A stretch of 53,344 bases of DNA from Bacteroidia bacterium (lineage in GTDB: Bacteria > Bacteroidota > Bacteroidia > Flavobacteriales_D > Crocinitomicaceae). The notes under the pieces were generated by a model. The model made no database searches, was not told the origin of the DNA, and saw only the letters and a program-made list of their open reading frames with translations. Of this stretch, positions 14,416 to 36,831 are shown piece after piece (positions within the stretch are counted from its first letter, which is position 1; every line of letters starts with the position of its first letter). The stretch covers positions 1 through 53,344 of the forward strand of contig JAUHXX010000001.1 in assembly GCA_030426825.1 (NCBI GenBank), written 5' to 3'. A program made the translations under genes and the position numbers.

Positions 14416-14423
14416 CAAATTTA
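14416..14423 (-). promoter_or_regulatory. -7 promoter element (TAAATTTG) for pepT
   Basis: Exact TAnnTTTG 20 nt upstream of the ATG. Confidence 0.55.
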
Positions 14424-14434
14424 ATAATTCTGAA

Positions 14435-15004
14435 TTAGTCATTCTTTCTTTCGCCAAAGAATATTCCCAGCCTCAATTTAATCTCGAATGAAATTTGCGC
14501 AAAAGTATGGACATAGGTATAGAGGTCCTGTTTACTTTCATAAACTGATGGGCCCGCTAAAAATTCAAAGTGGAATCTTTTTTTAAACCCACTCAATCCG
14601 ATTGCTAACATTCCGTGATGCACGAAATTATCGTGCTCTGAATCAGCTGATTTACTAAAATTTACGAAGGGTTTATAAGCCAAACCAACTGTAAAAAAGA
14701 ATAACCTTTTTAGTCCAAATCGGTGATGATGATAACAGCCCATTTCAAATCCAAAACTGTTTCGGCTGGCTGAAGTTCCCAAGTTCTGTTTAGACAATCC
14801 ACCAGTCAGGGTGTGGTAATTCCTATAACCGAGTCCACCCCAAAAATTATAATGATAAACTAGTCCGTAACCAAGTCTGACTCTCATCAGATCAATAGAA
14901 ATGCCGTGCTGATATTTCATTTGTGGCAATGTGTCCAGATAAAAATTCTGACTTTTGGCAGAGATGGCCACAAACAAAAAAACTATTAGCAACTTGGGTT
15001 TCAC
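14435..15004 (-). CDS. Hypothetical exported protein, possible small outer-membrane beta-barrel
   Basis: Signal peptide, Gly/aromatic amphipathic strands, LRLGIFF near the C-terminus. Confidence 0.6.
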   Translation of the reverse strand: MKPKLLIVFLFVAISAKSQNFYLDTLPQMKYQHGISIDLMRVRLGYGLVYHYNFWGGLGYRNYHTLTGGLSKQNLGTSASRNSFGFEMGCYHHHRFGLKRLFFFTVGLAYKPFVNFSKSADSEHDNFVHHGMLAIGLSGFKKRFHFEFLAGPSVYESKQDLYTYVHTFAQISFEIKLRLGIFFGERKND

Positions 15005-15045
15005 ATAAATAGAACAGTTCGCTATACTAAAAAGTTACTTTCAAT

Positions 15046-15078
15046 AAAAAATGGGCTTCCTTTAGGAGGCCCATTTTT
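15046..15078. terminator. Intrinsic terminator (U-tracts on both strands)
   Basis: A6-TGGGCTTCC-ttta-GGAGGCCCA-T5. Confidence 0.8.
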
Positions 15079-15128
15079 CAACAGTAAGTAGCGTTCAAGG
15101 CTTTGAGCGCTGTGTAGAGTTTCTGAGT

Positions 15129-15206
15129 TTAATTGACTAGGTGGATCACCTCCACATTTGCGCACACGAAAACTGTTTTAATTTCAGTTGCAACAAGATT
15201 AGTCAT
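15129..15206 (-). CDS. Candidate 25-aa small protein MTNLVATEIKTVFVCANVEVIHLVN
   Basis: ATG...TAA ORF below the ORF-track cutoff, A-rich upstream region, followed by a hairpin and a terminator. Confidence 0.45.
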   Translation of the reverse strand: MTNLVATEIKTVFVCANVEVIHLVN

Positions 15207-15510
15207 GATGGTCTTTTTAAAAGCCGTTAGCAAGAAATGCTAAAAAAATGGGCAAGTGGCTTCGTTGGACTTTTAATTCGAATTTTCTTATTCAAATTTA
15301 AATTCAAGTCAAAAATAACGTACTCAGAATAGTCATTTTTACTTTCAATAGAATTTAAGTTATGCATTCATTTAAAAATCGAATTAAGCTTTTAACGGTT
15401 TCAAACTAGGATTTTAACAACCTGTTCTCAAGGTGATCGCCAAAAGTTAGGGCAATTTACAACAAAATACTTTACAGCACAAATAATTTTTACGGCTTAA
15501 AAGCAATCTA

Positions 15511-22068: not shown

Positions 22069-23334
22069 ATGAATAAGCTTTTACTCTCTATCCTTATTTT
22101 AGGGGCAACTTTTATTGCTCATACTCAGCCTGCAAATGATGCTTGTTCTGACTCACAGCGGCTTTGCGCAAACCAACCACTGCAAGGAACAACAGCTGCC
22201 GCAACAGTTGACCCCGCTTCTGATTTAGATTTCTGTACAGTAAATACAGCAACCGTTTGGTATCATTTTACTACTAATGCAGCAGGAGGTAACGTTACAA
22301 TAGACATCACGAACATGTCTTTTAACCCGGGAGCCACATACGGACAAACCATTGACGCCATTATTTATTCAGCAACCTCACCTTGTGTACAAGGAACTAT
22401 GAACCCTGCGTCGGCCTGTGGAAACAGTGGTGTAGACTTCAGTGTAACAACCTTTGCTGCCTTGAATCCAAACACCACCTACTACCTAATGATCAATGGT
22501 AACACAAATGGAATGGCAAATTCTGCAGAATGCGATTTCACAATTGATATTTCAGGCCCGGCAGTAGACGCAACTTTCCCAACAGCATCAATTTCTACAA
22601 TGGATTCGGTTTTATGTGAGGGAGATGATGTACCAGTTGAAACAATCATTGCCAATTGCTCCGATACAGCCACATTTGATTGGTATTACAATAACACGCT
22701 CATCCTTTCTGGTCCAACCAATGATTTTTCAACTACGAGTTTAACTGAAGATGGATACCTTAAACTAATCATCAACTGCGGCTCAATCTGCACTTATTCA
22801 GACACTACTGATAGTATTTTTTACGAAGTTACTCCAATAGGTGCTAATGCCGGACCCGACAAATTTATTTTAGATGGGGAACTCGCTAACATTGAAGGCT
22901 CAGGGAATGGTACACCTTTGTGGAGCCCAACTGGCACATTAACAGACCCATCTAGTTTTACTCCCACAGCAAATCCAAGTGTAACGACAACCTATTTTTT
23001 AACTGTTAACAACGGGAGCTGCACAGCAACAGATAGTATGAATGTTTTTGTAGGAGAAGTGGTCACGATTTACAGTGGGTTTTCTCCTAACGGGGATGAT
23101 ATTAATGACAAATGGGTCATCAAAAACAGTGCTCAATACCCTGACATGGAAGTGACAATTTTCGACAGATCTGGACAGAGAATTTATCACACAACAGGTT
23201 ACTCAACTCAAGAAAAATGGTGGGACGGAACCTATAAGGGAAAGGCACTACCAGTATCAACTTATTTTTATGTCGTTGATCTAAAAATTGGTGATGAAGG
23301 TATTTTCAAAGGTCAAATAAACTTGATTAGATGA
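22069..23334 (+). CDS. T9SS cargo with type B (gliding-motility-associated) CTD
   Basis: Signal peptide, PANDAC, Ig-like modules, FSPNGDDINDKW...IFDRSG...WDG...TYFY. Confidence 0.9.
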   Translation: MNKLLLSILILGATFIAHTQPANDACSDSQRLCANQPLQGTTAAATVDPASDLDFCTVNTATVWYHFTTNAAGGNVTIDITNMSFNPGATYGQTIDAIIYSATSPCVQGTMNPASACGNSGVDFSVTTFAALNPNTTYYLMINGNTNGMANSAECDFTIDISGPAVDATFPTASISTMDSVLCEGDDVPVETIIANCSDTATFDWYYNNTLILSGPTNDFSTTSLTEDGYLKLIINCGSICTYSDTTDSIFYEVTPIGANAGPDKFILDGELANIEGSGNGTPLWSPTGTLTDPSSFTPTANPSVTTTYFLTVNNGSCTATDSMNVFVGEVVTIYSGFSPNGDDINDKWVIKNSAQYPDMEVTIFDRSGQRIYHTTGYSTQEKWWDGTYKGKALPVSTYFYVVDLKIGDEGIFKGQINLIR

Positions 23335-24275
23335 GGATAGGATCGATAATCATATTGTGCTCTCTGCTCTTTTCTTTCAATGGAATTGCCCAACAATTGG
23401 AACATTATACCCAGTATCAACACAACCAATTTGCATTCAATCCAGCCGTGGCTGGAACTAAAAACTGCCTAGATATTAGAACGGGTTATCGCTTTCAATG
23501 GGCTGGAATAGATGGAGCACCTCAGACAGGATTTATCAATGCTCACGCTCCCTTAAGATTAGGTAAAAAAAGAAATACTTTTGGGCCGAAACATGGAATC
23601 GGTGGTCAAATAAAGCGGGACGTTTTTGGCCCTTTCTCTTTTCTTAGCTTGCATGCTGCCTACGCCTTACATTTGCCCGTCTCAAGAAAATGGACCGCCT
23701 CATTAGGACTGTCGTTTGGATTCAAACAATCTGTCTATGATGCCGCCAACATAACAACGGAAATCGCAGATCCTGCCTTTCCTGGGACAAGTCAATCGTT
23801 TATCGTTTTTCCTGATGCGAAACTTGGGGCTTGGGTAACCAACAAAAAAACTTATGTTGGATTATCACTGCATAATTTATTTGGAAATACATTTTCGAAA
23901 ATTGGGCCAGGTGCAAAAGCCCAAAGACATGTCTATATTACAGCAGGCCACAGTTTTCCGCTTGAAAAAAACTGGTCGTTCATTCCTTCGTTATTTCTAC
24001 TTTGGACAAAATCAACTCCTATTGATTTTCACTTGAGTGCCCTGCTTGATTTAAATAATAAGTTTTCTTTTGGCTTGGGAATGCGAAGAACGGATGCCGT
24101 TACCGCACAAGTGCGAGTAAAATTCTTTAATTGGATATCTTTAGGGTATTCATTTGACTTTATCATTTCAAAACTAAATGGCAATATGTGGCAATCACAT
24201 GAAATTACTGGTGGATTCAATTCGTGCTCAAATTATGGTAATTCAAGCACGACCGATTGCCCTAGTTTTGAATAA
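23331..24275 (+). CDS. PorP/SprF family T9SS outer-membrane protein
   Basis: YTQYQHNQFAFNPAVAG, YRFQWAGIDGAP, GYSFD, SHEI. Confidence 0.92.
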   Translation: MRIGSIIILCSLLFSFNGIAQQLEHYTQYQHNQFAFNPAVAGTKNCLDIRTGYRFQWAGIDGAPQTGFINAHAPLRLGKKRNTFGPKHGIGGQIKRDVFGPFSFLSLHAAYALHLPVSRKWTASLGLSFGFKQSVYDAANITTEIADPAFPGTSQSFIVFPDAKLGAWVTNKKTYVGLSLHNLFGNTFSKIGPGAKAQRHVYITAGHSFPLEKNWSFIPSLFLLWTKSTPIDFHLSALLDLNNKFSFGLGMRRTDAVTAQVRVKFFNWISLGYSFDFIISKLNGNMWQSHEITGGFNSCSNYGNSSTTDCPSFE

Positions 24276-24351
24276 AACAACCTTTGACGCTATCCTTTCG
24301 TTTTGTATATTGAAGTCGAATAGGAGGATAGCCAACAAATATTTGACTTAA

Positions 24352-27300
24352 ATGACACCTACAAAATTACACACTATGAAAAAAATGAAGTCCTCATTTT
24401 TATATTCAGTTGTAGTTCTTATTGCTTTCACATTTATCACAAACTCTTCCTTTGCGGCGGACCTTTATTGGGTGAATGGCTCTGGAAATTGGAACGACTC
24501 AAACCATTGGTCAACAAGTTCTGGAGGCTCCACATCAAGCGCAATACCGGGCCCAGGAGACAACGTGCATTTTGACTTGAATTCCTTTCCGGCAACAAAT
24601 AATGTTATTACAATCGCCCAAAACATTTCTATCAACAACGTCAAAATTAACGGTGCCCATTTTTTCGTTTTAGACGCACCCAATCACAACCTTGAGGTAA
24701 AAGGAGATTTTACAGCCAACACAAAATTTCACCTTAACGCTGATGAATTGACCTTTAACGGAAATGGAAATCATGTAATTAACACGAACAATTGTGACAT
24801 TTCAGCTACCGTTGCTTTTGAAAACGGAACTTGGAATTTAAACGGGCACCTACAAACGACCGCATTGAAATCAATTTATTTTAATGGAGGAATAATCCAT
24901 TCTAACGGGTTCAGTATTGCTACCGAATCTGTAGTAGCTAATGTAGACCCTGTTCAATTAGATTTTACGAACTCCTATATCGTTGGATATAATTCAATTG
25001 ATTTAAGCCAAGCCTCAAATATTGGCGGAAATGCCATCTTTTTCACTGTGGACAATGAGGTTCCAGCCTCTAAAAAAGGAGGGTTCAATAATGCAACTTT
25101 TCAACGAGACCAAACTGTAAATTGTCAGTTTATGGGAAGTCCAACCGGCTTAGTTGTTGATATTACAACGATCGATTATGTTGGTGGATTTAATGTTTCC
25201 TGTGATGGAGTCTGTGATGGTGAAATTACAATTTCTGCCGCTGGTACCGCAGGGCCATATTCATATAGTTTAAATGGAAGCCCTTATACTTCTCAGACTG
25301 TTTATTCTGGACTTTGTGGTGTAACTTATACTATCTCTGTTAAAGACTCGTCTCAAGAAATTGGGGTTGGTTCTGGAGTATTTGTTAATTGTAATACTAC
25401 TGAGAACTTGCAGCCTCCTGGTCCACTTATCTTAGATGAACTTGCTCCTCCCACTGATGTGTCTTGTTTTGGAGTATGTGATGCAGATGCGTTTACCGAT
25501 CCTTTTGGTGGACAAGGTCCATATACGGTAACTTGGGCTACCAGTGGAGAAGTAACACCCTTCCCTACTTTCTTGTGTGCAGGACCAAATCCTGTTGAAA
25601 TTGTTGATGCAAATGGCTGTATTTTAAATACTTCTATCAACATTGGTGGACCACCAGACATTACAGCAATTCTTAGCATTAATGAACCAACATGTAACGG
25701 TGATTGTGATGGTGAAGTTAACATAATTCCAGGTGGTGGAAACGGAGGCCCTTATTCATATGTTTGGACGCCCGTTCCGACTTCTGGTCAGGGCACGGAG
25801 CCAGGAATAGGGTTTTGCGCTGGACTTATAAATGTAACAATTGGGGATGTAGCTGGCTGTACTAAAGACACCACGGTGACTATGACCGAACCATTAGTCT
25901 TAACTGCAGCACCTACTGCAGATGCGCCAACAAGTTGTTTTGGCTCTTGCGACGGACAAGCAAGCGCTAACCCATCTGGGGGTGCAGGCAATAACACATT
26001 TGAATGGTTCACTTGTGCTGGTGTATCTACCGGCATAACTGATGAAAATCCCAACACGCTTTGTGCCGGAGATTATTATGTGGTAGTTACTGATCAAAAT
26101 GGACTAGGATGTTCTTTTCAAAGTGGTTGTATTACCATAACTGAACCAACAGAAATTGACGCTACTGCTGATGCTTATCAGGTTTCTTGTTTTGGAGTGT
26201 GTGATGGATCTGTTGATGTTGACGCTACCGGAGGTGTTCTTCCTTACACTTATTCCTGGGTAACTGTTCCAGGAGGAACTGGAGTTGGAGCCAACGATAC
26301 CTTATTTGGACTTTGTCCCGGATTATATGAAGTAATCGTTACGGATGCAAACCTTTGTAATTCAACACCAGATACGGTAGAAATTCTTGAACCAGCACCA
26401 GTCACCTTATTGCTTAATGGAACCGACCCAACTTGTTATGACCTATGTGATGGATCTGTTGTTGCCACTCCAGGAGGAGGTACGGCTCCATATGGATTCA
26501 ATTGGATACCAGCACCAGGAGCTGGACAAGGAACTGCGAACGGAACCAATATGTGTGCAGGAACATATGATGTAACCTTAACCGATCTTAATGGATGTAA
26601 TGTTACAGAGCAAGTCATCTTAAATAATCCGCCTCAGTATGATATAACTACGGCCCAAACCAACTTACAGTGTGCTGGAGATGCAAACGGGACAATTGAT
26701 GTGACCGTAAACTCCGGAGGTTCTGGAGTTGGTTATACTTATACCTGGGTACCTGCTGCACCTATTGGTGACGGCACTCCTAATGTGTCAGGTCTAACTG
26801 CGGGTGTTTGGTGCGTTACTATTCAAGATGATCAACTCTGTGATACCACACTTTGTTTCACAATTTCAGAACCAAACCCATTAACAGCAAACGCATCAGT
26901 TATATCGCATGTCACCTGTTTTGCAGATTGTGACGGTTCCGGACAAGTAGTTATTAATGGAGGAACTGCTCCTTATGTGATTTCTTGGGCCCCAGGAGGA
27001 CAATCTTCACAAGTAGCAAGTAACTTGTGTGCAGGAAATTATACTGTAACGGTAACAGATGCAAATTTATGTTCTGTAAATGATAACATCACAATCAACC
27101 AACCCACTCAATTCGACCTGAGTATGTCTCAAACCGACATTAGTTGTTTCGGTGATTGTGTAGGTGATGCAACCATTACAGTGAATAGCGGCGGAACTCC
27201 TCCATACGTATATCAATGGAATGATCCACTATTACAAACCAACCCAACAGCCATCAATCTATGCGCAGGAAATTATACTGTAACAGTTACCGATCAAAAC

Positions 27301-30300
27301 CTATGTGATACAGTCATAGCTTATACTATAATTGAGCCAGCTCAGATCGTAATCGATACCAACGTTACCAATTCTTCTTGCTTTGGTACGTGCTCAGGTG
27401 AAGCAAATATCACCTTAGTTGGTGGAACTGGAGCATACAATTTCGAATGGTTTGATGTTGCTACTGGCCTTCCGCTTGGTGTTAATAACGATTCAATTTC
27501 AGGTCTATGTCCTGGACAATATTATGCACAAGTGACGGATGCTGCACTTTGTGTAGTAAATTCTGATACCATAACAATTACTGAACTTCCACCAATAAAC
27601 ACGTCTATAATATCTATTGGTGATGCTACTTGTGGTGTATGTGATGGAACGGCTGAGGTGCTGGCAACAGGAGGTACAGGAACGTTTACATATACTTGGA
27701 CTCCGGTGCCAGGAACTGGTCAAGGAACAACAACTGTAACTGGACTATGTGCTGGTGCTTATTCAGTTGCCGCAACAGATCAAGCTGGTTGTACCGCAAA
27801 CATTGCAGTTAACGTTAATAGTGTAGCCTTAGAAGTAACAACAATGGACTCTACAGACATCACTTGTTTTGGGTTGTGTGATGGAACCGCCACAATAAGT
27901 TACAATGTTTTAGACCCTCCTTACACAGTAACCTGGTTCGATAACTTAACTGGATTACCAATAGGAATTGTAGACAACCCCGCTTCACAACCCAGTACAG
28001 CGACAGGTCTATGCGCTGGAGAATATCTTGCGGTTTTGACGAATCAATCTGGATGTGTAACCTCTGACACCATACAAGTTAACGAACCGCCTCAAATTAC
28101 TGGAAGCGTTACACCAACCCCTGTTACATGTAACGGAGCCTGTGACGGATCAGCAGCAGCAGTTGCTGCAGGCGGCACCGGTGTATTGACTTATACATGG
28201 GGACCTGGCCTTCCAGGTGCTGGTCAGGGAACGCCAAATGCAAGTGGAATGTGTGCAGGTAACTGGACTGTTACAGTAACAGATGCGCAAGGTTGTACGG
28301 CTGCATTCCCAACAACTATTTCAGAACCAGTTGTACTTGCCATTACAAGCGAAAACTCTACTAATATCAGTTGTTTCGGTGCAAATGATGGAACTGCAAC
28401 AATAATTCATTCTGGTGGTATCCCACCGTACAATTATCAATGGATAGATTGTAATACAGGTTTACCAATTGGACAAACCTCACAAATGGCAACGAACCTA
28501 CCAGCGGGAGATTATCAAGTTGTTGTAACTGATGCTAACGGTTGTAACGTTACAAGTAACTGCCTACCTGTAATTGAACCCTCTGCTATCACGGCAAATT
28601 TAAATGCCAGTCCGGTAAACTGTTTTGGATTTTGTGATGGTCTTATTGATGTCGTACCGGCGGGAGGATCTGCCCCATATTTTTATCAATGGCAAGATGA
28701 ATTCTTTGTTGACCTCCCAGGTCAAACTAATGACACGTTAAATAATGTTTGTCAAGGAATGTATAATGTTGTAGTAACGGATTTCAATGGCTGCTCAATG
28801 ACTTTTGGGCCTGTAGACATGACCTCTCCAACCGACCCGTGGAATGTCACAACCAGCCAAACAAATGTTACCTGTTCTGGTAATTGTGATGGTACAGCAG
28901 GAGTCATTGTTGTCGCTGGAAACAATCCGCCATATACTTATCAATGGGATGATCCTTTGGCACAAATTACTCCAACAGCAACTTTTCTGTGCCCTGGAGT
29001 TTATACCGTAACCATCACGGATGCTAGTATTTGTGACACTACTATTCAATTTACAATTGTAGATGCCAATCCAATAATAGCCAATGCAACTATCAATAAT
29101 GTGCAATGCTTTGGGGATTGCACTGGGTCTGTAACTGTTGCACCAACTGGTGGTGATGGCACATACACTGTTAATTGGTCCGATTTACAAACTGGGCTGA
29201 CTGCTTCAAATTTATGTAGCGGAGCAATAACTGCTACAATTACTGATGGCGGAGGATGTTTTATTGATACTACTATCAATATTACTGAACCACCTGCATT
29301 AGTTGCAAATTCAACATTCTCAAATAATGCCAGTTGTGGGGCATGTAATGGTAGTGCAACAGTAAACATGGGTGGTGGAGTTGGACCTTATACTTACGAT
29401 TGGACGCCAGACCCTGCTGGAGGTGATGGAAATAATAATGCGACAGGCCTGTGTCCTGGTGTCGTTTCAGTATTGGTTACTGATGCCAATGGATGTACTT
29501 TAACAGAAGTCTTTGCTATATCAGATATCAATTCTGAAATTCTAACTATGGATTCAATTGATGTTAGTTGTTTTGGTGCCTGTGATGGATCCGCAATAGT
29601 TAACTACGTATGTAGTGACCCAGGATGTACAAATCAATGGTATGATGGAGCCACAGCAACCCCAATAGCTGGTGAAACAGGAACTACTTTGGCAAATCAA
29701 TGTGCTGGTGATTATTATGTTGAGGTCACAAACGCTTCTGGTTGTGTTGCTGTTGGGCTCACAACTATAACAGGGCCAACACAAATAATAGCCAACGAAA
29801 ACATTTCGCAAATTACATGTAATGGCGCTGGTGATGGTCAAATAGATCTTTTCCCTAGTGGGGGTTCTGGTGCAGGATATACTTATGTTTGGAATCCTGT
29901 TCCTCCAAATGGACAAGGAACAAGTCAAGCGATCGGTCTTGGAGGAGGTATCTGGTGTGTAGATATTACTGACAGTGATGGTTGTACAGAAAACTATTGT
30001 TACAATTTAACAGAGCCAACAGCAATCGTAATTACCCCAACTATAACAGACCCATTATGTAATGGTAGTTGCAATGGAATTATTTCGGTTTCCGTAAGTG
30101 GCGGAACAGGAGGTTATAACTTCCAATGGTTTGATGGCGGGGGTGCTCCAATTGGCACAAATAACCCAATTATTGGATCATTGTGTGCCGGTAATTACTC
30201 CGTAGATGTTACTGATGCAGGTGGATGTACTCAAACGTTGAATGTTACACTTACAGAGCCGAATCCAATCAGCACCGCTATTGCAAGCACAGATGTACAA

Positions 30301-33300
30301 TGCTTTGGCGCTTGTGATGGAACCATAACAGTAACCCCGGCGGGAGGATTTCCACCATATACCGTCAATTGGTTTAACTCAACTACTGGATTATTAATTG
30401 GACAATCAGGAGTAACGGCATCTAATTTATGTCCTGGTGACTTCCACGCTGTGATTACGGATGCCAATGGGTGCAGCTTTACATCAGCAACAACAACAAT
30501 CACCGAACCGGCAGAATTAACGTGGACATTAACAACAAATGACGCTTCATGTTTTGGAGTCTGTGATGGAGACGCCACAATTACACCTCTAGGGGGCACT
30601 CCTGCTTATATTTATGAATGGCTAGATATTACAGGAACACCAATAGTGGGAGGAACGAATCCTATGGTTGCAAACCTTTGTGCTGGAAATTACACAGTAC
30701 AAGTAACCGACCAAAACGGTTGTACATCAGGACAAGAACCAGTGGTTATTAATGAATTTCCTCAAATTACAGGTAACGTCTTCAGTAATGATGCAACTTG
30801 CGGATTAAATGATGGAAATGCAACAGTGTTTGCCAATGGAGGTAATCAACCATTTGTATATCAATGGTATGACAACTTGCTCAATCCATTAGTTGGAGAA
30901 ACCAACAATGTATTATTAAATGCTGCTGCCGGTACTTACTTTGTAGATGTTACAGATCAAAATGGCTGTACAACACAATTTCAAGCCAACATTTCAAATA
31001 TCCCTTCAACAACTCTTACATGGGATGCCGTTAATCACCCAAGTTGTTTTGGAGCGGCTGATGGAAGTTTAGCTATTACAACTACAGCCGTTAGTCCACC
31101 TCTGGTTTATCAATGGAATCCTGGAGGATTAATCGCAGAAGATCCAACCGGATTAACTGCAGGTAATTGGACTCTTCAAATCACGGATGCTTTGGGCTGC
31201 ATTAATTTTTATGACACTACACTTATTGACCCAAGCCCAATTATAGTTACTCCTACCACTACTCCTACAGACTGTGGCCAATGTAATGGTGCGATAACGG
31301 TGGCCGTAAGTGGTGGAACCGGCACATTAAACATTCTTTGGAATACATCCGATACTGGACCTACAATTACAGGATTATGTTCTAGTATTTATGAAGCACA
31401 AGTGACAGATCAAAACGGTTGTCAAGTTACTGAACCAATTGATGTTCCAAATAATGGAGGCCTCACGGAAGATGTAGTAATTCAGGCAATTACATGTGCT
31501 GGGTCTTGTGATGGTCAAGCAACTGTAACAGGGATTGGGGGAACTCCTCCATATACTTACTTATGGCTACATGATAATTCAACAGCACAAACTCAAACAA
31601 ACTTATGTGCTGGATCATATTTCTGCGAGATTACTGACGCCGCAGGTTGTGTGAGATCTATTGAAGTAGAAATGACGGATCCTAATGCTATAGACGCTAC
31701 TGCATTAATTTCTAACCCAGCATGTGGTGTTAATGACGGATCTATTACAGTAAGTTCGAGCAATGGTATTTTACCTCATACTTATCTTTGGAACACATTA
31801 GATGTCACACCGGTAATTTCAAACCTTGGTGCTGGAACTTATACATTAACGATTACAGATGCAGCTGGATGCTCTCAAGACTTTGTGTATGGGCTTAGCA
31901 ATTCAGATGCAGCGATAGCTATGTTAAGCAGTATAGATGTAAACTGTCATGGTGTATGTGATGGACAAGGAGACACGCTTTCTGTAACGGGAGGAACAGG
32001 ACCTTACTCATTTGATTGGTTGGATAATACCGGTTCCTCTACTGGAATATTAACTCCTTTAGCAACGGGATTATGCGCTGGTGATTATATGTTACAAGTT
32101 ACGGATGCATTAGGTTGTATTTCATTTGAAAACATTACCATCAATGAACCGGATACAGTAATACTCAATCCATTGTTCAGTGTTGACCCATCATGTGCTG
32201 GATTATGTGACGGTGAATTAATTGCGAATCCAATTGGCGGAACATTACCGTTTGGATTCCTATGGGACGATCCAGCCGCTCAAAGCACCATTACAGCAAC
32301 AGGACTTTGTGACGGTAATTTTAATGTAGATATTACTGATGCAAACGGTTGTACGTTTACTCAGTCTGGAACTGTAACGGAACCAAGCGCTATTACCGTG
32401 GTTACTGATAGTATAATTGATGCTACATGTTTAAACTCACCAGACGGTGAAATCTATATAACTATTTCAGGCGGAACTCCGGGATATACAACTCAGTGGG
32501 TTTCACAAACACTCACTGATACAATACCTGATGAGGACCCAACTGGGTTGTTGCCAATGGATTATTATTTAACTATAACGGATGCTAACGGCTGTATGGT
32601 CATGGACACCATGTCTGTTGATACCTTGCTAGTTGTTTTAGTAGATGCAGGTTTAGACACTCTTTTATGTTCTGGGTTTGGAACAAGTTTATTTGCTACT
32701 TCAAATGTTGACCCAATGGGCGATTATACTTGGTATGACATCAGCATGACTACCAACTTAAGTGACACAAACGAACTTGTAATCAACCCTGGCAACCCAG
32801 GCGTTACAGATTATATTATTGAAGTCACTTTAAACGGATGCTCTCATTCAGATACAATTTCAGTTACAACAACCTCTCCATTCACTGTAGATGCTGGACC
32901 AGATGTAGACATGTTTGCTACTCAAACCGAATCCATTGGAGGGAATCCAACATCCAATGAAGTCACGCACGTGTATTCATGGACTCCAAGTCTATTCTTA
33001 TCTGATACCACCTCAGCTAATCCAAGTGTGATTCAGCCTACTTCGTCAAATTGGTATTTCGTTACCGCAACAGATACAAACGGGTGTACCAACATAGATT
33101 CTATGTATGTTGAACTGCAACCTGACATAATAATTCCTGATGGTATTTCACCAGACGGAAATGGGCTTAACGATACTTGGATACTCGACTTTATGGAACT
33201 ATATCCGGGTGTAAGCATGGAAATTAATGTTTATAATAGATGGGGAGAGCCGTTGTTCACATCTGACGAAACTTACCAAGATGATTGGGGTGGAACAACA

Positions 33301-33405
33301 AAAGACGGTAAAAAACTTCCAGCAGGGACTTACTATTATACTATAACAATTGATCATGAGGACTTCCCAGATCCGTTTACTGGTCCGATAACAATAATGT
33401 GGTAA
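24352..33405 (+). CDS. Giant SprB-repeat surface adhesin with type B CTD (3017 aa)
   Basis: YWVNGSGNW N-terminal domain; ~31 Cys-rich repeats (CxGxCDG...GG..PY.Y.W...LCAG.Y.V.VTD.NGC); ISPDGNGLNDTW CTD. Start may be 24376. Confidence 0.92.
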   Translation: MTPTKLHTMKKMKSSFLYSVVVLIAFTFITNSSFAADLYWVNGSGNWNDSNHWSTSSGGSTSSAIPGPGDNVHFDLNSFPATNNVITIAQNISINNVKINGAHFFVLDAPNHNLEVKGDFTANTKFHLNADELTFNGNGNHVINTNNCDISATVAFENGTWNLNGHLQTTALKSIYFNGGIIHSNGFSIATESVVANVDPVQLDFTNSYIVGYNSIDLSQASNIGGNAIFFTVDNEVPASKKGGFNNATFQRDQTVNCQFMGSPTGLVVDITTIDYVGGFNVSCDGVCDGEITISAAGTAGPYSYSLNGSPYTSQTVYSGLCGVTYTISVKDSSQEIGVGSGVFVNCNTTENLQPPGPLILDELAPPTDVSCFGVCDADAFTDPFGGQGPYTVTWATSGEVTPFPTFLCAGPNPVEIVDANGCILNTSINIGGPPDITAILSINEPTCNGDCDGEVNIIPGGGNGGPYSYVWTPVPTSGQGTEPGIGFCAGLINVTIGDVAGCTKDTTVTMTEPLVLTAAPTADAPTSCFGSCDGQASANPSGGAGNNTFEWFTCAGVSTGITDENPNTLCAGDYYVVVTDQNGLGCSFQSGCITITEPTEIDATADAYQVSCFGVCDGSVDVDATGGVLPYTYSWVTVPGGTGVGANDTLFGLCPGLYEVIVTDANLCNSTPDTVEILEPAPVTLLLNGTDPTCYDLCDGSVVATPGGGTAPYGFNWIPAPGAGQGTANGTNMCAGTYDVTLTDLNGCNVTEQVILNNPPQYDITTAQTNLQCAGDANGTIDVTVNSGGSGVGYTYTWVPAAPIGDGTPNVSGLTAGVWCVTIQDDQLCDTTLCFTISEPNPLTANASVISHVTCFADCDGSGQVVINGGTAPYVISWAPGGQSSQVASNLCAGNYTVTVTDANLCSVNDNITINQPTQFDLSMSQTDISCFGDCVGDATITVNSGGTPPYVYQWNDPLLQTNPTAINLCAGNYTVTVTDQNLCDTVIAYTIIEPAQIVIDTNVTNSSCFGTCSGEANITLVGGTGAYNFEWFDVATGLPLGVNNDSISGLCPGQYYAQVTDAALCVVNSDTITITELPPINTSIISIGDATCGVCDGTAEVLATGGTGTFTYTWTPVPGTGQGTTTVTGLCAGAYSVAATDQAGCTANIAVNVNSVALEVTTMDSTDITCFGLCDGTATISYNVLDPPYTVTWFDNLTGLPIGIVDNPASQPSTATGLCAGEYLAVLTNQSGCVTSDTIQVNEPPQITGSVTPTPVTCNGACDGSAAAVAAGGTGVLTYTWGPGLPGAGQGTPNASGMCAGNWTVTVTDAQGCTAAFPTTISEPVVLAITSENSTNISCFGANDGTATIIHSGGIPPYNYQWIDCNTGLPIGQTSQMATNLPAGDYQVVVTDANGCNVTSNCLPVIEPSAITANLNASPVNCFGFCDGLIDVVPAGGSAPYFYQWQDEFFVDLPGQTNDTLNNVCQGMYNVVVTDFNGCSMTFGPVDMTSPTDPWNVTTSQTNVTCSGNCDGTAGVIVVAGNNPPYTYQWDDPLAQITPTATFLCPGVYTVTITDASICDTTIQFTIVDANPIIANATINNVQCFGDCTGSVTVAPTGGDGTYTVNWSDLQTGLTASNLCSGAITATITDGGGCFIDTTINITEPPALVANSTFSNNASCGACNGSATVNMGGGVGPYTYDWTPDPAGGDGNNNATGLCPGVVSVLVTDANGCTLTEVFAISDINSEILTMDSIDVSCFGACDGSAIVNYVCSDPGCTNQWYDGATATPIAGETGTTLANQCAGDYYVEVTNASGCVAVGLTTITGPTQIIANENISQITCNGAGDGQIDLFPSGGSGAGYTYVWNPVPPNGQGTSQAIGLGGGIWCVDITDSDGCTENYCYNLTEPTAIVITPTITDPLCNGSCNGIISVSVSGGTGGYNFQWFDGGGAPIGTNNPIIGSLCAGNYSVDVTDAGGCTQTLNVTLTEPNPISTAIASTDVQCFGACDGTITVTPAGGFPPYTVNWFNSTTGLLIGQSGVTASNLCPGDFHAVITDANGCSFTSATTTITEPAELTWTLTTNDASCFGVCDGDATITPLGGTPAYIYEWLDITGTPIVGGTNPMVANLCAGNYTVQVTDQNGCTSGQEPVVINEFPQITGNVFSNDATCGLNDGNATVFANGGNQPFVYQWYDNLLNPLVGETNNVLLNAAAGTYFVDVTDQNGCTTQFQANISNIPSTTLTWDAVNHPSCFGAADGSLAITTTAVSPPLVYQWNPGGLIAEDPTGLTAGNWTLQITDALGCINFYDTTLIDPSPIIVTPTTTPTDCGQCNGAITVAVSGGTGTLNILWNTSDTGPTITGLCSSIYEAQVTDQNGCQVTEPIDVPNNGGLTEDVVIQAITCAGSCDGQATVTGIGGTPPYTYLWLHDNSTAQTQTNLCAGSYFCEITDAAGCVRSIEVEMTDPNAIDATALISNPACGVNDGSITVSSSNGILPHTYLWNTLDVTPVISNLGAGTYTLTITDAAGCSQDFVYGLSNSDAAIAMLSSIDVNCHGVCDGQGDTLSVTGGTGPYSFDWLDNTGSSTGILTPLATGLCAGDYMLQVTDALGCISFENITINEPDTVILNPLFSVDPSCAGLCDGELIANPIGGTLPFGFLWDDPAAQSTITATGLCDGNFNVDITDANGCTFTQSGTVTEPSAITVVTDSIIDATCLNSPDGEIYITISGGTPGYTTQWVSQTLTDTIPDEDPTGLLPMDYYLTITDANGCMVMDTMSVDTLLVVLVDAGLDTLLCSGFGTSLFATSNVDPMGDYTWYDISMTTNLSDTNELVINPGNPGVTDYIIEVTLNGCSHSDTISVTTTSPFTVDAGPDVDMFATQTESIGGNPTSNEVTHVYSWTPSLFLSDTTSANPSVIQPTSSNWYFVTATDTNGCTNIDSMYVELQPDIIIPDGISPDGNGLNDTWILDFMELYPGVSMEINVYNRWGEPLFTSDETYQDDWGGTTKDGKKLPAGTYYYTITIDHEDFPDPFTGPITIMW

Positions 33406-33416
33406 AACGAAATCAG

Positions 33417-34337
33417 ATGAAAAAATTATTAATTATACCTTTTTTGTTCTTTTCGTTTAGCGTTATAGGACAGCAATTACCTCAGTTTACTCAATACATG
33501 TTTAACCAGTACGCCTTTAATCCGGCCTATGCTGGTCTAAACAAATATTGGGAAGCTACAACCGTTAACCGGTATCAATGGTTGGGAGTAACAGATGCAC
33601 CTAGAACATTTACTTTAAGCGCACATGGACCTTTAAAAAATGAAAAAGTAGCCTTAGGAGGATATGTATACACAGATGTTGTCGGTCCAACCAGAAGAAT
33701 TGGTTTCCAAGCATCTTTCACTTATCATTTAAAGCTGACTGAGAATTTGAATATGTCATTTGGACTTTCTGGTGGTTTCAACGAATGGTTATTAGATGCA
33801 GATAAAATCACGACCTATCATCCAAATGATTTTTATTTTTCTAATGGTCTTTTAAAGTCGTTTGAGCCTGACGCTAAATTTGGATTTTATCTTTATCATC
33901 CTGATTGGTATTTTGGGGCCTCAATTGGCCAAATGTTCCATAATAAAGTTTCTTTCCTTGAAACACAAACAAGCTCAGAAAGCTATATGGAAGACCACTT
34001 TTACTTCAACGGTGGATATAAGTTCAGGATTGGAGATGATTGGGGAATTGAACCAACAGCTATGCTTAAAATGGGGTTGCCGGCACCAGTTAAATTCGAT
34101 TTAGGAGTTCGTGGTATTTATAAAGAAACTGTATGGTTAGGTATCGGTTGGAGAAGTAATGATGCCGTAAATGCAATTATCGGTTATAAATACAAAGACA
34201 TGTTAACCATTGGTTATGCCTATGACCTAACTATCACCAAGCTTAAAAACTTCAACACGGGTTCACACGAAATTATGTTGGGTGTTAAATTCGGTAAAAC
34301 TGGTGGCCAAAACACCAACAAACCTTCGTTGGAATAA
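33417..34337 (+). CDS. PorP/SprF family T9SS outer-membrane protein
   Basis: QLPQFTQYMFNQYAFNPAYAG, RYQWLG, GYAYD, GSHEIML. Confidence 0.94.
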   Translation: MKKLLIIPFLFFSFSVIGQQLPQFTQYMFNQYAFNPAYAGLNKYWEATTVNRYQWLGVTDAPRTFTLSAHGPLKNEKVALGGYVYTDVVGPTRRIGFQASFTYHLKLTENLNMSFGLSGGFNEWLLDADKITTYHPNDFYFSNGLLKSFEPDAKFGFYLYHPDWYFGASIGQMFHNKVSFLETQTSSESYMEDHFYFNGGYKFRIGDDWGIEPTAMLKMGLPAPVKFDLGVRGIYKETVWLGIGWRSNDAVNAIIGYKYKDMLTIGYAYDLTITKLKNFNTGSHEIMLGVKFGKTGGQNTNKPSLE

Positions 34338-34377
34338 ATTTGATTATCTTCATGCACCTCTTAAACCTAATGTGCGT

Positions 34378-36831
34378 ATGAAAAAGATCTTTCTTTTTTA
34401 TCTATTTATTGGCCTTGTGTCATTTTGTTCGATAGGACAAGACTTAAAACAAAATATCCGTGGCACTGTCGTTGATGCTGAAAGTAAATATCCCCTTGTT
34501 GGAGCTAAAGTAATCGTCACCTCTGTTGACCCACAAATTGGTGGGATATGTGACGAGAAAGGAAATTTCACCTTGCTAAATGTCCCTATTGGCAAACATC
34601 AAGTAGATATAAAATCTATCGGATATAACCCAAGAAGTTTAACAGTCATTGTAAATGTTGGTAAGGAATCTATTATCAACGTTCAAATGGAAGAATCCGC
34701 CGTTATGGGTGAAACCGTAGTTGTTACTGGCCGTCAGAAAGGTGAGGTCATCAATGAAATGGCAACAGTATCAGCACAAAGTTTTTCGGTTGAAGAAACT
34801 AATCGATATGCTGGAAGTAGAGGTGACCCTGCCAGAATGATGTCAAACTATGCTGGAGCGCAAGGAACTGATGATTCAAGAAATGATCTTGTTATTAGAG
34901 GTAACTCACCATTAGGAATAATTTACCGTGTTGAAGGTGTAAGTATACCTAACCCCAATCATTTCGCTATTGCAGGATCAACAGGGGGGCCGGTATCTAT
35001 TTTAAATAATAAATTTTTAGATAATTCAGACTTTTTTATGAGTGCATTTCCGGCAGAATATGGAAATAGCGTTGCGGGCGTATTTGATTTGAATTTAAGA
35101 AAAGGAAATGATCGATTACATGAGTTTTCTGGGCAATTTGGCTTTCTTGGGACCGAACTATTATTTGAGGGGCCACTATCGAAAAAAACGGGTGCCAGTT
35201 ATCTAGTAATGGGCCGATATTCAACTTTAGCGCTATTTGATAAGGTAGGATTACAATACGGAACGGATGCAACCCCAACGTATGGAGATGCTGCTTTCAA
35301 ATTGAACTTTCCGTTAAAAAAGGGTGGGAATTTATCTCTTTGGAGCATTGCAGGAACCAGTGGTATTGATATCCTAATTTCAGATCAAACAGAACCAGAC
35401 CAAGATGCTTTTGGTGAACAAGATAGAGATCAACTATTTGGAACCGATATGGCCATTGCCGGAATTACTTATAAAAAACCCATCAACAAAAAGACATTTT
35501 TAAAAACAAGTTTGTCTTATGCTTATCAAAAACAATCAACCCAACATTTGTACATTTTACGGACCTTACTTCCAGACAGCACTTGGCAATATGATGCGGA
35601 CCCTTTTGATATGATGGGTTACTCTTATCAGATTCAAACAGGATCAGCCTATTTAAGCCTTAACCACAAATTAAATAAAAAGCACATCATCAAATACGGA
35701 ATAAATCTTGATGCTTATCACATGAATATGCAGGATTCGATTCGTTTTGACATTACAGACTCGAGTTCTAACTTTTTTTACAGATGGGATTACAAATCTA
35801 ACTCACCCGATTTTTTGGCCCAGGCCTTCTTACAATGGAAGTATAAGATCAATCAACGCCTTACATTAAACGCGGGAGTACACGCACAGTATTTTACATT
35901 AAGTAATTCATTATCTGCTGCTGAACCAAGAATTGGGCTCAAAATTGCAACTTCCGATAAAAGCGTTCTTGCTTTAGGAGCTGGAATGCACTCACAACAT
36001 CATCCCTTATATATCTATACCTATCATCAAAATTTAGGAAACCAAAAAATCTATCACAATTTAGATATGGACTTCATTAGAAGTATTCATTCAGTGATAA
36101 GTTACTCCACCAAAATTGGCAAGTCTATGTCATTTAAAACAGAGGCCTATTACCAATATTTATACAATGTTCCTGTAACTGTAGAGCCAAGTTCATTTTC
36201 TATTCTAAACCAGGGAAGTGGCTTTGCCAGATTTTTCCCTGACAGCCTTGAAAACACTGGAACAGGGTATAATTACGGACTCGAATTCACAGTACAGAAA
36301 TTCTTTGATAACAGTTTTTTCTTTATGACTACATTGAGTTTGTATAATTCTAAATACTACGGTAGTGACGGCATCTTGAGAAACACTGATTTTAACGGTA
36401 ATTATATTGCAAACGCCTTAGCCGGAAAAGAATTCAAAATCGGGAAAACAGATAAACACTCCTTATCCCTTGGATTGAAAGTGACCTATGCAGGAGGTAA
36501 GCGAAGAGGAATTGTTGACCCCGTCATGACTGATTCTTTAAAAGAAGTCATTTTCTTAGATTCTGGATATAATGAAGTGCGATTTAAAGATTATTTCCGC
36601 TTAGATGTAAAGGTGAATTATGTGCTGAACGCTAAAAAAACAACACACGAGTTTGGTCTAGACCTTGTGAATATTTTGAATTATGATAATATCCTTGGAT
36701 TAACCTATACACCGAATCAAGACAATCCTATGATGCCATATCAAGAAAGAAATCAGCTTGGATTTCTACCAATTTTCTATTACAAATTAGACTTCAAAGT
36801 TGCAGGAAAAAAAGAACCACCTATCGAATAG
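34378..36831 (+). CDS. TonB-dependent receptor with carboxypeptidase-regulatory-like N-domain
   Basis: IRGTVVDAES, plug RNDLVIRGNSP...IPNPNHF, AFPAEYGN, beta-barrel, YFRLD. Confidence 0.92.
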   Translation: MKKIFLFYLFIGLVSFCSIGQDLKQNIRGTVVDAESKYPLVGAKVIVTSVDPQIGGICDEKGNFTLLNVPIGKHQVDIKSIGYNPRSLTVIVNVGKESIINVQMEESAVMGETVVVTGRQKGEVINEMATVSAQSFSVEETNRYAGSRGDPARMMSNYAGAQGTDDSRNDLVIRGNSPLGIIYRVEGVSIPNPNHFAIAGSTGGPVSILNNKFLDNSDFFMSAFPAEYGNSVAGVFDLNLRKGNDRLHEFSGQFGFLGTELLFEGPLSKKTGASYLVMGRYSTLALFDKVGLQYGTDATPTYGDAAFKLNFPLKKGGNLSLWSIAGTSGIDILISDQTEPDQDAFGEQDRDQLFGTDMAIAGITYKKPINKKTFLKTSLSYAYQKQSTQHLYILRTLLPDSTWQYDADPFDMMGYSYQIQTGSAYLSLNHKLNKKHIIKYGINLDAYHMNMQDSIRFDITDSSSNFFYRWDYKSNSPDFLAQAFLQWKYKINQRLTLNAGVHAQYFTLSNSLSAAEPRIGLKIATSDKSVLALGAGMHSQHHPLYIYTYHQNLGNQKIYHNLDMDFIRSIHSVISYSTKIGKSMSFKTEAYYQYLYNVPVTVEPSSFSILNQGSGFARFFPDSLENTGTGYNYGLEFTVQKFFDNSFFFMTTLSLYNSKYYGSDGILRNTDFNGNYIANALAGKEFKIGKTDKHSLSLGLKVTYAGGKRRGIVDPVMTDSLKEVIFLDSGYNEVRFKDYFRLDVKVNYVLNAKKTTHEFGLDLVNILNYDNILGLTYTPNQDNPMMPYQERNQLGFLPIFYYKLDFKVAGKKEPPIE

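Follow-up and report, generated by a model that had tools for sequence, protein, structure and literature searches.

Type I toxin-antitoxin mRNAs (hok/sok, tisB/istR, txpA/ratA) consist of a long structured leader, a sequestered start, a small open reading frame (ORF) and a terminator. CsrB and CrcZ titrate their proteins, 6S RNA forms a rod with paired ends and a central bubble, and the hammerhead ribozyme has a CUGANGA core, GAAA and three stems. The dual-function sRNA SR1 of Bacillus subtilis is a stand-alone small RNA in which a small ORF is combined with a distinct RNA domain (PMC8501984, in part). Structured 5' transcribed regions in Flavobacterium psychrophilum indicate that leaders without Rfam matches are common in flavobacteria (PMC9723704, in part). 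Section 19 of that paper, its table of 64 leaders aside, names no leader of a type IX secretion system (T9SS) cargo gene.

We analyzed a stretch of 53,344 nt (the window; genome G000), in which the intergenic gap at 15005-15510 (506 nt) is the longest, the next-largest being 249 nt, as the initial annotation had it. Like SR1, the unit within this gap has the form of a stand-alone small RNA with a coding part and a separate RNA domain; unlike SR1, it has two ORFs with nearly unconstrained peptides, no base-pairing target was found for it, and its 5' domain is shared with mRNA leaders. It resembles the hok/sok-type mRNAs in its long structured leader, sequestered start, small ORF and terminator, but differs from them in having no conserved hydrophobic helix, in the absence of a visible antisense gene and in being single-copy. 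Its features, in the order of predicted transcription, are:

15452 to 15483, minus strand: promoter of the Bacteroidota primary-sigma type, in which 20 nt separate the -33 TTTG (15480-15483) from the -7 box (15452-15459)
15388 to 15447, minus strand: 5'-terminal RNA motif, supported by covariation, register, distribution and position
15273 to 15387, minus strand: helix H, in which 15379-15387 pairs with 15273-15281 within ORF1, enclosing the ORF1 start
15227 to 15367, minus strand: ORF1, 46 aa, with the same start and frame in 7/7 genomes (43-51 aa) and a barely conserved peptide
15129 to 15206, minus strand: ORF2, 25 aa, the frame singled out by the initial annotation, with a positional counterpart open in 7/7 genomes
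15080 to 15122, minus strand: conserved 3' RNA domain, with an AAACUCU block (15114-15122), a hairpin (15090-15111) and a CUACUUACU block reaching to 15080
15046 to 15079, minus strand: terminal hairpin, intrinsic-terminator-like in G000 and strong in 7/7 genomes, with a weak U-tract in G002-G004

BLAST against 61 genomes detected the element in G000, where it is single-copy, and in six of seven congeners; the 5' part alone was found in one other genus, and one terminator-only match was attributed to chance. Note that the seven carrier genomes are related by kinship. The element is syntenic across the carriers, and the remaining congener, G007, keeps the flanking genes without the element at that site. 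In the window, the neighbor on one side is a 216-aa lipoprotein-like gene that lies downstream of miaE; on the other side it is a 189-aa gene, and this lies upstream of an M20 peptidase, which we read as pepT. The 189-aa gene (14435-15004, minus strand) has no Pfam or NCBIfam match; a gene of similar size lies between element and pepT in G003 and G006, and none does in G002, G004 and G005. Besides promoter and 3' block, the congeners conserve the first 90 nt and a 9-nt mid segment, and the most variable part of the unit is the region holding ORF2. One congener peptide is labelled Paracrocinitomix mangrovi at NCBI. An Rfam 15 scan, a check proposed in the initial annotation, gave nothing at or above the gathering threshold in the window, the best of the sub-threshold matches (E<=10) lying on the terminator with an E of 0.086, and none in five other copies of the 5' motif. 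The description of the gap as an unannotated structured transcript is borne out as far as it concerns a structured, conserved transcription unit, for which a hint of RNA exists, but its center lies elsewhere than in the 25-aa peptide.

The hint comes from metatranscriptome contigs, three RNA runs containing part of the stretch. In run X4, the binned word depth was 455-1246 at 15110-15377 versus 19 and 78 in the adjoining bins; strand, ends and level cannot be read from such contigs, and individual ones in X4 span both promoter and terminator. The small-share runs X19 and X20 yielded only contigs of 151-301 nt at a depth of 2-3 on the element, which are no evidence of level.

With the Bacteroidota -33/-7 promoter consensus and numbering (PMC6847099, in part), the predicted +1 is 15447, where the conserved stem begins. 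The initial annotation had described a near-consensus promoter. A promoter is indeed present, and its position is kept in the congeners, but it is of the Bacteroidota type and not sigma-70 (the scan found no sigma-70 site on the minus strand), and its -7 box fits only 4/6 consensus bases, the weakest among 73 motif copies scored. In 71 of these 73 distinct copies, a TAnnTTTG box (>=5/6) puts +1 8-16 nt before the closing G, compared with 11% of random positions; the core letters were preselected in this set, and core invariance is better judged from alignment A5. The 73 are the distinct ones of 76 loci; the weak L094, L273, L139, L225 and L242 and the duplicates L117, L119, L202 and L269 were omitted. 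Separately, a perfect TAAATTTG -7 box lies within ORF1 (15293-15300, minus strand) and could start a shorter, ORF2-only RNA; it has no -33 box at the usual distance and was not seen in relatives.

The 5' motif is closed by a 10-bp stem of variable sequence, P1 (15438-15447 with 15388-15397). It contains an asymmetric loop, two U-A pairs, predicted tandem G.A pairs and a variable apical stem, with the core G-W-U-C-W-CCUUGA ... YGAAACC. Among nine sequences, P1 showed two-sided changes in 9/10 pairs, a score reached by 0/500 shuffles, and slid controls were 31-56% paired. On a 26-sequence alignment P1 was 95.8% paired. In the inner register with tandem G.A pairs, pair 25-47 was kept in 26/26 sequences with 8 two-sided changes; the register first returned by RNAalifold for the inner stem breaks a pair in 8/26, and the tandem G.A register was preferred. 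Read in the minus orientation, P1 contains 34 G.U cells versus 11 unpaired cells of 260. This G.U excess, together with the promoters and downstream genes of the other copies, supports the minus strand. From the variable, wobble-rich pairing we infer that the motif is an RNA structure and not a DNA operator.

Tandem G.A pairs (predicted here) beside a stem, followed by GAAAC, are shared with hammerhead domain 2 and kink-turns. The motif is not a hammerhead: it has CCUUGA instead of the CUGANGA turn, no stem I (alignment A5) and no Rfam match. A kink-turn is defined by a 3-nt bulge directly before the tandem G.A pairs (in part from PMC3651934), whereas pairs 21-51 and 25-47 of the motif flank the G.A pairs without one. 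As to 6S RNA, the consensus of the unit has no end-to-end pairing, and the 6S-Flavo model, run without a positive control, matched 0/4 genomes.

Model R1 of the motif matched 31/141 genomes of the family. The 21 new R1 loci were inspected; 17 were kept and the four weakest dropped (L067-L070, three of them within long ORFs), giving the 26 sequences. Model R2 matched 83/150 family genomes and 20/28 genera, training genomes included; in the genera g9, g23 and g17 it matched 0/11, 0/9 and 0/3 genomes. Matches thinned out at wider range, with 16/150 genomes in a sample of the order (4/128 outside the family, one of them, L273, doubtful) and 3/150 in a sample of the phylum, where the 148 genomes of other families gave a single weak site. 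Note that the strict filters in these scans may lose divergent copies. Five further genomes, one of them an Ignavibacteriota, contained no motif. Named records with the motif were mostly Crocinitomicaceae (Fluviicola, Brumimicrobium), with Parvicellaceae and unclassified Flavobacteriales in addition. Among pattern matches in a genome collection, 92/120 failed E<=1.4e-4 and were treated as chance. Metagenome pattern scans gave no match and then one without the GAAACC half; viral scans gave none and then 47 pattern matches, two scoring weakly and none convincing.

Motif copies always lie 5' of genes, at 9 to about 165 nt from the start codon. Outside the stand-alone unit these genes encode secreted proteins, many of them T9SS cargo. 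A domain scan of 20 downstream proteins found LTD with a T9SS type A tail in five, SprB or CHU Ig repeats in six and other extracellular domains in three; the remaining six, cut by locus ends, had no match. All five full-length large proteins matched the T9SS type B domain, four of them above the cut-off. In the literature consulted, which includes PMC11109978, PMC8632094 and PMC5737381 (each in part) and 2026 bioRxiv surveys, no RNA leader common to T9SS cargo genes was found; the supplements may list the motif. The motif would be a new orphan among leaders, and its stand-alone derivative is unusual.

We next consider the coding part of the stand-alone unit. ORF1 went unmentioned in the initial annotation, which had assigned some 230 nt to a hairpin-rich leader. 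This region is structured, but it is not a plain leader, as it contains the 60-nt conserved motif and the 46-aa ORF. The distances from the ORF1 ATG to an Arg anchor (84-99 nt) take five different values, every one a multiple of 3. The ORF1 frame has no stops, while the other sense frames have 1-9 each (chance of staying open 0.03-0.12 per genome). DNA identity is 41-67%, indicating sequences near saturation, and variability by codon position is 0.52/0.49/0.46, third positions being no more variable than the others. The start context is poor, with U at -3 in 7/7 genomes, suggesting that ORF1 may be weakly translated. In run X3, nine differing sites are listed in 72 nt of ORF1 (15263-15334) versus 53 over 4001 nt; ORF1 thus looks hypervariable between close strains.

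Helix H joins the segment directly after the motif to codons 29-32 of ORF1. Its 9 pairs are formed in 96.8% of cells in the seven genomes, one of them with a two-sided change, and its predicted probability ranges from 0.15 to 1.0 across genomes. A competing hairpin over the ORF1 start codon showed no covariation.

ORF2 reads as the initial annotation described it. In 7/7 genomes the first ATG past the ORF1 stop, 19-29 nt after it, opens a frame of 22-34 aa; this rule was chosen post hoc, and the chance of an open frame is 0.04-0.18 per genome. ORF1 and ORF2 together span 85-92% of the variable middle. The ORF2 counterparts are the least conserved part of the unit, with 9-38% identity to the 25-aa peptide, and the seven of them share no invariant column. 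This does not agree with the FVCxNV...LV family suggested in the initial annotation, and the exact peptide is absent from the protein collection, as are 8/9 of the peptides looked up there.

By sequence comparison, then, the layout is conserved, a 5' stem covaries at the predicted +1, the motif is associated with T9SS cargo, and the frames stay open while their peptides drift. The last observation suggests that the unit likely acts as RNA and through translation, and not as a toxin message. Tentatively, and at somewhat less than even confidence, we favor a stand-alone RNA of ~400 nt under a cargo-type leader, in which translation and not the peptide is selected and the 3' domain is the likely payload. 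The 5' hairpin would set the level of the RNA by binding a trans-acting factor; a protein or ligand that co-regulates the cargo mRNAs may read it in cis directly after initiation. Ribosome transit of ORF1 would melt helix H, coupling translation to structure, and translation of ORF1 and ORF2 may shield the RNA from Rho or nucleases. Ribosome cover of the middle would let the conserved 3' domain be made and survive, and this domain may bind a protein or RNA partner.

The strongest competitor, which we regard as unlikely but worth serious consideration, is that ORF1, and perhaps ORF2, encode functional small proteins that evolve fast, the unit being a two-gene mRNA which the motif places in the secreted-protein regulon. 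Both frames are open in 7/7 genomes, and ORF1 has the invariant residues M1 and N5 besides the Arg anchor; in column shuffles, p was 0.001 for its first 8 codons and 0.06 for the second block. In run X3, 4/8 changed ORF1 codons were synonymous among the listed differences, compared with 18% expected. NCBI calls the G002 counterpart of ORF1 a 'hypothetical protein', and the ORF2 start has a good context in G000 (A at -3, -6 and -12; A at -3 in 3/7 genomes). However, ORF1 shows no third-position excess, its peptides are only 19-31% identical among genomes, and the Arg anchor lies within helix H, which is an RNA constraint. Homologue searches were likewise unproductive: the peptide search gave no candidate for ORF1 alone, none of 114 candidates matched the ORF1 profile except its own G002 member, and language-model features (Atlas) gave no usable match. 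Moreover, the near-invariant 3' block is left unexplained by small proteins.

The stand-alone form was seen in one genus. The copies outside the genus that are most like that of the window (G034, G077) head a cargo gene, and the leader of this gene's orthologue is short and lacks the motif in G000 and in 6/6 congeners tested. Comparison of these leaders suggests that, in this genus, a motif copy may have been moved from a cargo gene to the stand-alone unit. G004 and G006 have the stand-alone unit plus a second motif copy before another, T9SS cargo gene. Searches of G000, single-contig G002 and G005 gave no second copy (for G002 and G005, 150 of ~4000 candidates were scored each).

The RNA might, by analogy with CsrB and CrcZ, act as a decoy, titrating whatever factor reads the motif on cargo mRNAs. 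The same motif on a short, possibly abundant RNA and the coexistence of unit and cargo copy in G004 and G006 would fit such a role. We nevertheless judge it improbable, as each RNA carries a single motif copy and G000, G002 and G005, in which the scoring gave no second copy, show nothing to de-repress.

A further reading, distinctly improbable in our estimate, takes the motif as the aptamer of a metabolite- or ion-sensing riboswitch that would control ORF1 translation via helix H. The motif is, as in riboswitches, a conserved, covarying aptamer-like structure 5' of genes, with invariant internal-loop bases within covarying stems. On the other hand, it is small and simple, the distance to the start codon varies widely, and the downstream genes share secretion and not a metabolic pathway. 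Inspection of the cis copies revealed no shared expression platform, and helix H adjoins the motif only in the stand-alone unit. Among known leader motifs, DUF805b (RF02914) is similar: it, too, is a short hairpin of 5' leaders whose internal bases are conserved, and it occurs in genomes of the same family. Its sequence is unrelated, and the window motif differs in sitting at the predicted +1 and in tracking secreted proteins. Identity of the two was rejected, since 0/5 motif sites were among the DUF805b matches listed and true DUF805b matches lie elsewhere in those genomes. One family genome has two above-threshold DUF805b copies 1.1 kb apart (L284, L289; G103:C1:2910-4039).

Returning to the ribosome-covered RNA that we favor, its proposed payload, the 3' domain, is nearly invariant in blocks and hairpin within the genus and intact only there; allowing one mismatch in the 3' block, matches outside the genus were at control level. 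In a search for targets, the best duplexes of the domain with 2735 G000 start regions were no better than those of 10 shuffled seeds. The 3' hairpin and the terminator-like hairpin are both present as the initial annotation claimed, and its remark that the two stems pair slightly better on the plus strand is true in G000. Whole-region folding in G000 gave z-scores of -2.5 for the minus and -3.6 for the plus strand. On the minus strand, the 3' hairpin has one C.A mismatch in 5/7 genomes, favoring the plus strand, whereas in G002 and G004 the G.U pairs of the terminal hairpin favor the minus strand. With signals for either strand, an antisense RNA is conceivable.

The resemblance to a type I toxin mRNA, proposed in the initial annotation, would call for an antisense antitoxin, here over the 3' end. 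Besides the plus-strand pairing of the 3' hairpin, the structured leader with its start enclosed by a long-range helix, the A/U tracts that flank the terminal hairpin on either side in G000, G001 and G006 and the patchy presence of the unit agree with this idea. It is nonetheless very improbable. The small toxin with a conserved hydrophobic helix that marks this class is represented by neither ORF1 nor ORF2: neither has a transmembrane segment consistently (the best 19 residues reach a hydropathy of 0.08-1.59 in ORF1 and -0.21 to 1.70 in ORF2). The 25-aa peptide, for which a toxin or regulatory role was suggested, shows the lowest conservation within the unit and is inconsistent in hydrophobicity (GRAVY -0.29 to 1.65). 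Furthermore, no antisense promoter beyond the terminator was seen by eye in G000, G004, G005 and G006, the G.U pairs in the G002 and G004 hairpins favor the minus strand, the element is single-copy, and no family matched.

Within ORF1, 15248-15258 is complementary over 11 bp to the 5' arm of the terminal hairpin (15069-15079; both minus strand), only in G000. A leader-peptide attenuator for the downstream gene is the least probable reading, as this potential anti-terminator (p=0.023, uncorrected) and one X4 contig that crosses the terminator are set against its occurrence in 1/7 genomes instead of a conserved anti-terminator, a varying next gene (pepT in three genomes, a ~200-aa protein in three, none called in one) in place of a fixed downstream operon, a separate -7 box for pepT (14416-14423) and the absence of a run of control codons.

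A broader interpretation, which we consider doubtful, is that the motif is the receiving end of a post-transcriptional T9SS-cargo regulon, operated by a new riboswitch class or an RNA-binding regulator, and that a captured copy made a ribosome-gated RNA in which two sequence-free mini-ORFs license a 3' effector. The reach of the findings is that of a motif mostly of one family and a stand-alone form of one genus. Within it, the regulator or ligand could be sought by way of a motif that covaries well and stands at transcript starts in more than half of the family genomes. The stand-alone form, for its part, allows a compact test of the idea that ORFs can be kept open by selection for translation alone.

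The window also contains a T9SS-cargo-like gene cluster (22069-36831, plus strand), named by inspection, in which the cargo-like genes, one of them for a 3017-aa repeat protein, alternate with PorP/SprF-like genes; none of its genes carries the RNA motif. In L051, L054-L058, L060, L062 and similar loci, the motif lies between an S9-peptidase-like gene and an LTD-T9SS gene, followed by a TonB-dependent-receptor-like gene. This arrangement, its flanking genes likewise named by inspection, recurs across several genera and might be a DNA or polymer uptake unit. Finally, a strong motif copy with the start of a Fluviicola-like LTD gene occurs in L184 (CP034120.1:2716391-2717029), a record labelled as the gammaproteobacterium Glaciecola amylolytica, possibly reflecting mislabelling or a mixed assembly.
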